A stretch of DNA of 30,914 nt from a virus (lineage: Duplodnaviria > Heunggongvirae > Uroviricota > Caudoviricetes). Below the pieces are notes generated by a model, which did no database searches, was not told where the DNA came from, and worked only from the letters and a program-made list of their open reading frames with translations. Position numbers and translations under genes: made by a program. How positions within the stretch are numbered: position 1 is the first letter of the stretch; each line of letters opens with the position of its first letter. Of the stretch, positions 16,829 to 16,979 are shown in pieces. Location of the stretch: positions 1-30,914 of the IMG/VR virus record IMGVR_UViG_2537562231_000009; one strand, given 5' to 3'.

Positions 16829-16857
16829 GCCAGCCTCCCCCAGTGGCTGGCTTTTTT
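16829..16857 (+). terminator. Rho-independent terminator
   Basis: Hairpin GCCAGCC-TCCCCCAGT-GGCTGGC followed by a T6 run. Confidence 0.55.
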
Positions 16858-16859
16858 AT

Positions 16860-16979
16860 GTCCGTAGCGTCAAAGCAGCAATGGCGCTGGGGCGTCGTGC
16901 AATTGGCGTTGAGCTGGAGAGCGGGCGTTTTGAGCAGACGGTCAGGGAAGTTCAGAATGTAGTCAGTCAGAACGGATGA
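16860..16979 (+). pseudogene. 3' remnant of a DNA methyltransferase gene (encodes ...SVKAAMALGRRAIGVELESGRFEQTVREVQNVVSQNG)
   Basis: C-terminal motif-I region typical of beta-class N6/N4 methyltransferases, with no start codon or N-terminal body. Confidence 0.45.

Follow-up and report, generated by a model that had tools for sequence, protein, structure and literature searches.

Some Stx2a phages carry a regulator gene and a DNA methylase gene between q and the tRNA genes, and the 61-kb (933W-like) group lacks both (PMC8456039). Intact methyltransferase genes of 352 codons are found at the same place, just upstream of the ileZ-argN-argO tRNA cluster, in phiP27, in Stx2_14040 and in a Stx2c phage. 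The gene of the Stx2e phage phiP27 (L24, NP_543076.1) is 1059 nt long, encodes 352 aa and ends 40 nt before ileZ, and Stx2_14040 displays the order Q, small ORF, DNA methylase (of the same length as that of phiP27), three tRNAs, stx2AB and yjhS. Transcription of the region has been mapped in both Stx phages of strain Sakai (Sy et al. 2020, PMC7547250): a transcript starts at pR' and has its Term-seq 3' end 258 nt downstream, at tR'; this pR'-tR' transcript is the StxS sRNA, which RNase E cuts to a 74-nt form; and a primary start located between tR' and stx2AB drives the tRNAs. Between tR' and ileZ, phages 933W, VT2-Sakai, PA28, 06-3462 and other Stx2a phages carry the same short stub, which some phage records list as a 'DNA methylase' CDS of 50 aa and which PGAP calls a pseudogene in E. 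coli genomes of RefSeq. Our literature search found no paper describing this stub explicitly; PMC8456039 covers only the presence or absence of the regulator and the methylase.

We analyzed a stretch of 30,914 nt (the window) that represents an stx-negative prophage and carries this stub. Of its 111 nt, 110 are identical to those of 933W, with the same joint on the left, tR' upstream, and pT and ileZ-argN-argO downstream. Unlike 933W, this prophage has a TerB-family gene in the place of stx2AB, and a 4-kb block of hok and restriction-modification (R-M) genes between the Q body and pR'. Our main conclusion is that the stub is very probably a non-functional, passive relic of a phage beta-class DNA methyltransferase gene, located at an old recombination joint. 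It is already known, as it is present in 933W and annotated as a pseudogene in RefSeq, and an old, annotated pseudogene matters little on its own. Its value is that of a fixed landmark: it is the joint of a Q-pR'-StxS-tR' module with a methyltransferase-tRNA-(stx) module, and can be used as a marker for classifying the q-stx regions of Stx and Stx-like prophages. The features of the locus, and what each rests on, are the following:

12535-16556, + strand: cargo block with hok/sok, a BcgI-alpha-like nuclease-methyltransferase and an S subunit (comparison with 933W)
16557-16654, + strand: last ~28 nt of a 933W-type Q gene, as a relic (16557-16584), with pR', the qut region and a first hairpin (comparison with 933W)
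16655-16866, + strand: StxS region (pR'-tR'), 3' portion (present in 933W-type and Stx1c prophages, missing from phages with an intact methyltransferase)
16829-16857, + strand: intrinsic terminator tR' (fold; homology to the annotated 933W terminator, 20929-20957)
16867-16979, + strand: pseudogene remnant, last 36-37 codons and TGA stop of a beta-class N6/N4 DNA methyltransferase (tblastn, alignments, PGAP)
16982-17010, + strand: putative tRNA promoter pT, TTGCAG-17-TATTAT (homology to the 933W annotation; sequence)
17020-17269, + strand: tRNA cluster ileZ (CAT), argN (TCG), argO (TCT) (ARAGORN; homology to 933W and phiP27)

The methyltransferase remnant and its intact relatives

The list of open reading frames contains a + strand frame of 50 aa at 16827-16979, with a TTG start and ending in ...SVKAAMALGRRAIGVELESGRFEQTVREVQNVVSQNG before the stop. 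Within it, positions 16869-16976, followed by the stop codon at 16977-16979, correspond to residues 316/317-352 of the 352-aa methyltransferase; homology is unambiguous over 16869-16979, and the two bases 16867-16868 are ambiguous at the joint. A tblastn search of phage records with the 37 residues, a comparison with phage methyltransferases that the preliminary description had proposed, gave matches in 286 of 50,697 records, including the C-terminus of the phiP27 'DNA methyltransferase' (E = 8e-14, 89% identity). Full-length annotated DNA methyltransferases were found among these matches in phiP27, Stx2_14040, Stx2c phages and Klebsiella phages. Conversely, when intact enzymes were searched against the whole 30.9-kb window, only residues 316-352 were recovered, at 16866-16976 for phiP27 (E = 7e-16) and again as residues 316-352 alone for Stx2_14040 (E = 1e-13); with these two queries, residues 1-315 had no significant match anywhere in the window, on either strand. 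At the nucleotide level, the 111-nt stub is 94.6% identical to phiP27, and across the ends of the intact genes of phiP27, Stx2_14040 and a Stx2c phage, identity amounts to 81-89% in amino acids and up to 94.6% in nucleotides. Judged from these alignments, the similarity to methyltransferases is far beyond chance.

The family assignment comes from the intact homologues. The phiP27 protein belongs to PF01555 (N6_N4_Mtase; 150.2 bits), and the nearest solved relatives of the intact homologue are M.RsrI, CcrM, M.MboIIA, DpnA and M.PvuII. Its motifs are ordered with TDPPY near the N-terminus and DFFMGSGS near the C-terminus, and the label 'beta-class' is right because of this order, DPPY first and DFFMGSGS last. 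The stub alone scores 12.2 bits against PF01555, under the gathering cut-off of 26.7 bits, and has no match in NCBIfam; its descent from a member of the family is established by the two tblastn matches (E = 7e-16 and 1e-13) and by the 94.6% nucleotide identity. The nearest functional relative is phiP27 L24, which, like its Stx2_14040 and Stx2c homologues, has its last 36-37 codons homologous to the stub, at the same site upstream of the tRNAs. Compared to the L24 type, the window lacks codons 1 to ~315, including DPPY and FxGxG, and also lacks the small regulator gene upstream.

Both motifs that characterize the enzyme are thus outside the remaining sequence. Catalytic motif IV, (D/S)PP(Y/F), is TDPPY at residues 33-37 of intact homologues, and the window encodes residues 316-352 only; AdoMet-binding motif I, FxGxG, lies in DFFMGSGST-VKAA of the intact protein, and homology in the window starts at the V (16869), to the left of which the sequence is that of tR'. 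As motif IV and motif I are both missing, the stub cannot be an enzyme. Neither is there a complete ORF: the sole in-frame start upstream is the TTG at 16827, which lies inside the terminator stem and has no Shine-Dalgarno sequence. The opposite strand over the stub has no ORF of at least 30 aa. In a genome that is 99.95% identical to the window, as measured over 13121-17500, PGAP labels the same bases as a pseudogene, 'site-specific DNA-methyltransferase, incomplete, missing N-terminus'.

The preliminary description had read positions 16860-16979 as the orphaned C-terminal end of a beta-class DNA methyltransferase, lacking both a start codon and an upstream body. This is confirmed by the restriction of homology to residues 316-352, with a small correction at the left, where the homologous part begins at 16867-16869. 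That an ancestral methyltransferase gene downstream of Q had been truncated is likewise borne out by the intact gene at this place in phiP27, Stx2_14040 and Stx2c phages.

The joint and the control region to its left

To the left of the stub, the 933W annotation can be transferred feature by feature: pR', qut, the first hairpin, the second terminator and pT map to 16572-16599, ~16613-16620, 16630-16653, 16829-16857 and 16982-17010, respectively. The pR' promoter (TTTACA-16-TATCAT, 16572-16599) overlaps the 933W-type Q relic, which carries its -35 hexamer, and the first hairpin after pR' and qut folds at 16630-16649. The hairpin next to the stub, already noted in the preliminary description as a terminator, consists of a 7-bp G+C stem (16829-16835 paired with 16845-16851), a 9-nt loop and a T6 tract (16852-16857), with a folding energy of -16.1 kcal/mol (z = -2.8 against shuffles). 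A consensus terminator scan had missed it, its limit on loop size being 8 nt. The -10 hexamer of pR' ends at 16599 and the T tract at 16857, which places the 3' end ~258 nt from the pR' start. In Stx phages tR' is found at this distance beside a Q of the 144-aa type, and Q in the window has 141 aa. Because of the homology to the 933W terminator and of this distance, which is that published in PMC7547250, we identify the hairpin, from sequence, as tR', the predicted 3' end of the short pR' transcript, that is, of the StxS sRNA.

A homologue of the StxS/tR' region of Stx1 and Stx2a phages is therefore present in this stx-negative prophage, where StxS would be its predicted product; the 212 nt preceding the joint are 91.5% identical to 933W. 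The predicted StxS homologue (pR' to tR', ~258 nt) would extend over 16600-16858. With +1 placed near 16601, a GU/AUU motif at 16772-16776 would agree with the RNase E site that has been published at +173. An Rfam scan of 12400-17500 (E <= 0.1) returned nothing for StxS or for the stub; its only meaningful matches were sok and the three tRNAs, in addition to two chance-level ones below their gathering scores.

The joint was extracted from eight loci, and the window was aligned with 933W, F765, phiP27 and a Stx1c prophage. The junction is base-identical in the window, 933W, 06-3462 and F765, and reads ...GGCTGGCTTTTTTATGTCCGTA, then GC, then GTCAAAGC... More generally, every truncated copy has ...GCCAGCCTCCCCCAGTGGCTGGCTTTTTTATGTCCGTA GC GTCAAAGCAGC..., and every intact gene has ...GATTT(T/C)TTCATGGGGTC(G/C)GGTTCGAC(G/A) GTCAAAGCAGC... 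Homology to three independent intact genes starts exactly at 16869. On the other side, the Stx1c prophage shares the left sequence up to 16866, the right end of the 16655-16866 segment, and then passes straight into the stx1c upstream region. As three intact genes match from 16869 and the Stx1c prophage matches until 16866, the joint is located at 16866-16869, one codon past motif I. We also considered whether the GAT TTT TTC (D-F-F) codons of motif I could be the origin of the T tract of tR'. This was rejected as a chance resemblance: the 70 nt left of the joint align to phiP27 with a local score of 8, compared to 7.2 +/- 1.4 for shuffled sequences, 36% of which score 8 or more.

What phiP27 and Stx2_14040 have in common with the window on the left side of the joint is limited to 16583/16598-16654 (81-84% identity). 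Beyond this shared part they carry ~1.4 kb comprising the regulator gene and the methyltransferase body, in place of which 933W-type phages have the 212-nt StxS-3'/tR' segment (16655-16866). The same holds on a larger scale. Of 120 IMG/VR loci whose sequence across the joint point is of the intact type, 105 are open for 300 codons or more upstream, 10 reach the end of their contig and 5 have earlier stops; none of the 120 has the StxS-3' segment within 5 kb. The exact 25-nt joint is found in 54 IMG/VR contigs, and 53 of them contain the segment, the remaining locus having only 79 nt of upstream sequence. As 0 of 120 intact loci and 53 of 54 joint loci carry it, the StxS-3'/tR' segment and the methyltransferase body are alternatives. 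No intermediate between the two arrangements occurs in the sampled loci.

From this distribution we infer a single replacement that joined the Q-pR'-StxS-tR' module to the 3' end of the methyltransferase-tRNA module. The ancestral order would have been that of phiP27 and Stx2_14040, namely Q, a pR'-proximal hairpin, a small regulator gene, the 352-aa methyltransferase, ileZ-argN-argO and stx; in the 933W lineage, ~1.4 kb (the regulator and codons 1 to ~315 of the methyltransferase) would have been replaced by the 212-nt StxS 3'/tR' segment. The break lies just 3' of AdoMet-binding motif I, so that motifs IV and I are both lost and the sequence still encodes only the final strand and helix of the fold. 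A simple deletion in some ancestor outside the sample, or an insertion followed by a deletion, would produce the same picture and is not told apart from a single replacement. If, as the joint suggests in a wider reading that we hold to be improbable as a whole (see below), the StxS-3'/tR' segment entered the stx-tRNA module in place of the regulator and the methyltransferase, the Stx1c arrangement would be secondary, because the Stx1c prophage still has 9 bases, ATGTCCGTA, after the T tract.

Two sharp mosaic boundaries lie within these 212 nt, at 16654/16655 and 16866/16867. Homology is lost at the first in PhiR12_3, phiP27 and Stx2_14040, and at the second in the Stx1c prophage. The pR'-tR' interval is a recombination hotspot.

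The hok and restriction-modification block

The preliminary description had further proposed that the methyltransferase gene was truncated when the hok and R-M block (about 12.6-16.8 kb) was acquired, the remnant marking the right boundary of the insertion. The stub does lie downstream of the block, and there is a real mosaic boundary at 16866-16869, although not one that belongs to the block. Homology to 933W stops at 12534, inside the last Q codons, and resumes at 16557, so that the block corresponds to 4022 nt replacing 29 nt of 933W, and ends ~310 nt upstream of the stub. From there on, 16557-17317 aligns without interruption to 933W (92.5%), and also to 06-3462 and F765. In all three phages Q is directly at pR', with no cargo block, and the joint is identical. 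The true right flank of the block is 16557-16654, and the whole interval 16557-16866 is conserved late-gene control sequence (pR', StxS, tR'); the local map is corrected accordingly, with the cargo ending at 16556.

Frequencies point in the same direction. A 141-nt probe spanning the joint had a coverage of at least 80% in 542 of 5426 complete E. coli genomes; the block-containing segment was covered in only 22. In the 54 IMG/VR joint contigs, the Q body lies 0.54-0.76 kb upstream in 34, leaving no room for a 4-kb block; only 3 contain the block, in 3 others Q is 2.3 kb upstream, with some different insert, and 14 are either unclear or too short. The presence or absence of the block does not coincide with that of the joint. 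Moreover, the sequence to the right of the block varies between genomes, with three kinds of partner: PhiR12_3 diverges after 16654/16655, the Stx1c prophage after 16866, and the window type continues into the stub. Nor was a 5' half of the methyltransferase detected at the left edge of the block when the intact enzymes were searched by tblastn against the whole window.

One observation is in favor of the block as the cause: all genomes with this Q allele (at 95% identity or more) also carry the block. An empty site for this allele was searched in complete E. coli genomes with a chimera of 12235-12534 and 16557-16856, and none was found, the sole contiguous match being 82.5% identical. For this reason, the edges of the block are those given by 933W-type phages, whose identity to the window is ~78% over 12001-12534 (mostly Q) and 92% over 16557-17317. 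A truncation by the block followed by its later, precise excision is implausible, as excision would have to restore the 29 nt of 933W. Taking these points together, we regard it as extremely unlikely that acquisition of the block truncated the gene: the block is a separate and much rarer acquisition, placed between the Q body and pR'.

Q itself is a PF06530 protein of 141 aa whose C-terminal tail differs from that of 933W; in the window (Q at 12157-12582) the different tail begins at the left edge of the block. Besides one deposited phage, 22 complete E. coli genomes were found to contain the block. Its cargo includes hok/sok (Rfam sok, 118 bits), with 91% identity to the hokW/sokW pair located elsewhere in 933W; a 781-aa ORF with an N6_Mtase domain and a weak VRR-NUC match, which in phage PhiR12_3 bears the annotation 'BcgI alpha chain-like'; and a specificity subunit of the HsdS-like kind, with no HsdR. 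This R-M system looks Type IIB-like rather than Type I. The S-subunit ORF (15470-16564) is intact in the window (364 aa), and is annotated by PGAP as a partial pseudogene and a shorter CDS in the near-identical genome Z1323HEC0393.

The most unusual feature seen near the stub is an array of 34 perfect tandem GACCAGC heptanucleotides (13121-13358), at or before the 5' end of the BcgI-alpha-like ORF (13065-15410). Copy number differs in every relative examined, with 89, 83, 19 and 8+4+44 copies in four of them. The GTG at 13065 is in frame with the BcgI-alpha-like enzyme in the window and in one relative, and out of frame in three; as 7 is not a multiple of 3, the frame relation varies with copy number. 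The array may provide phase variation, by strand slippage, of an R-M gene in an E. coli prophage. It may also be no more than a hypervariable leader, as the gene start given by PGAP lies beyond the repeat. A literature search on this heptanucleotide repeat returned nothing relevant. The 'YXWGXW repeat' ORF that PGAP places on the reverse strand of the array is probably an artefact of the repeat.

Allelic variation and possible roles of the remnant

The 54 joint-bearing copies of the stub comprise 11 nucleotide alleles, all with the full 111 nt and with no indel, frameshift or stop, and the stub is 99.1% identical to that of 933W, compared to 87.8-95.5% for the flanking segments. Some constraint on the stub, such as a cis role next to pT, could be responsible; recent common descent and gene conversion by intact alleles would explain the pattern equally well. 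Differences among the stub alleles largely mirror those of intact alleles, for example T-E...D-L as in Stx2_14040, and one copy has a tail of the Stx2c type; this suggests gene conversion across the shared tRNA module. Changes specific to the remnant are three non-synonymous (T to S, L to V, A to S) for one synonymous, a ratio compatible with neutrality in what is a tiny sample, most variation being shared with intact alleles.

We weighed two ways in which the stub might be more than a relic. The first is that it is an intact small gene, of 32-50 aa from TTG 16827 or ATG 16881, or a 39-aa ORF in the +2 frame (16843-16962). The frame is indeed open in all 54 copies, and a 50-aa 'DNA methylase' CDS has been annotated in some phage records. 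However, the TTG lies in the tR' stem and neither it nor ATG 16881 is preceded by a Shine-Dalgarno sequence; the peptide would cover just a minor part of a Rossmann fold and contain no motif, and has no family-level match in Pfam or NCBIfam; PGAP calls a pseudogene; and the 3:1 changes, few as they are, are those expected from neutral drift. A functional small gene is in our view very unlikely, and the stub would be transcribed without being translated.

The second is that it is kept for a role in cis, either as spacer or upstream sequence between tR' and pT, or as processing context of the late transcript and the tRNAs. Such a role would explain the full-length stub in all 54 joint-bearing copies, which are free of indels; in addition, identity to 933W is above that of the flanks, pT begins 3 nt past the stop codon of the stub, and PMC7547250 reports a primary tRNA transcription start between tR' and stx2AB. 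Against it, the region -40 to -60 upstream of pT (~16940-16980) does not have the A/T-richness of an UP element. In the Stx1c prophage the stub and the tRNAs are both missing, which indicates that the stub travels with the tRNA module; indeed, the methyltransferase 3' end and ileZ-argN-argO travel as one module. Finally, the mirroring of intact alleles suggests gene conversion and not selection on the stub. We consider a cis role quite improbable, and a joint reading that combines a cis function at the tR'-pT boundary with the displacement history of the StxS-3'/tR' segment improbable.

We thus retain the passive relic. Under this reading the stub would appear in RNA only as part of a leader, made when RNA polymerase passes tR' with the help of Q, and would be the first sequence met beyond the terminator; it would otherwise act as a passive spacer between tR' and pT.

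Downstream of pT, ARAGORN reports the tRNA at 17020-17095 as 'Met (CAT)'; its homologue in 933W and phiP27 is ileZ, a tRNA-Ile reading AUA. The slot after the tRNAs, which is occupied by stx2AB in 933W, here contains a TerB-family gene (17367-17870; PF05099, E = 5e-16), followed by a DUF3927 gene (RefSeq) and a nanS-p-like SASA esterase gene (18450-20303). In IMG/VR loci with the joint, stx2A, TerB or something else is found in this slot.
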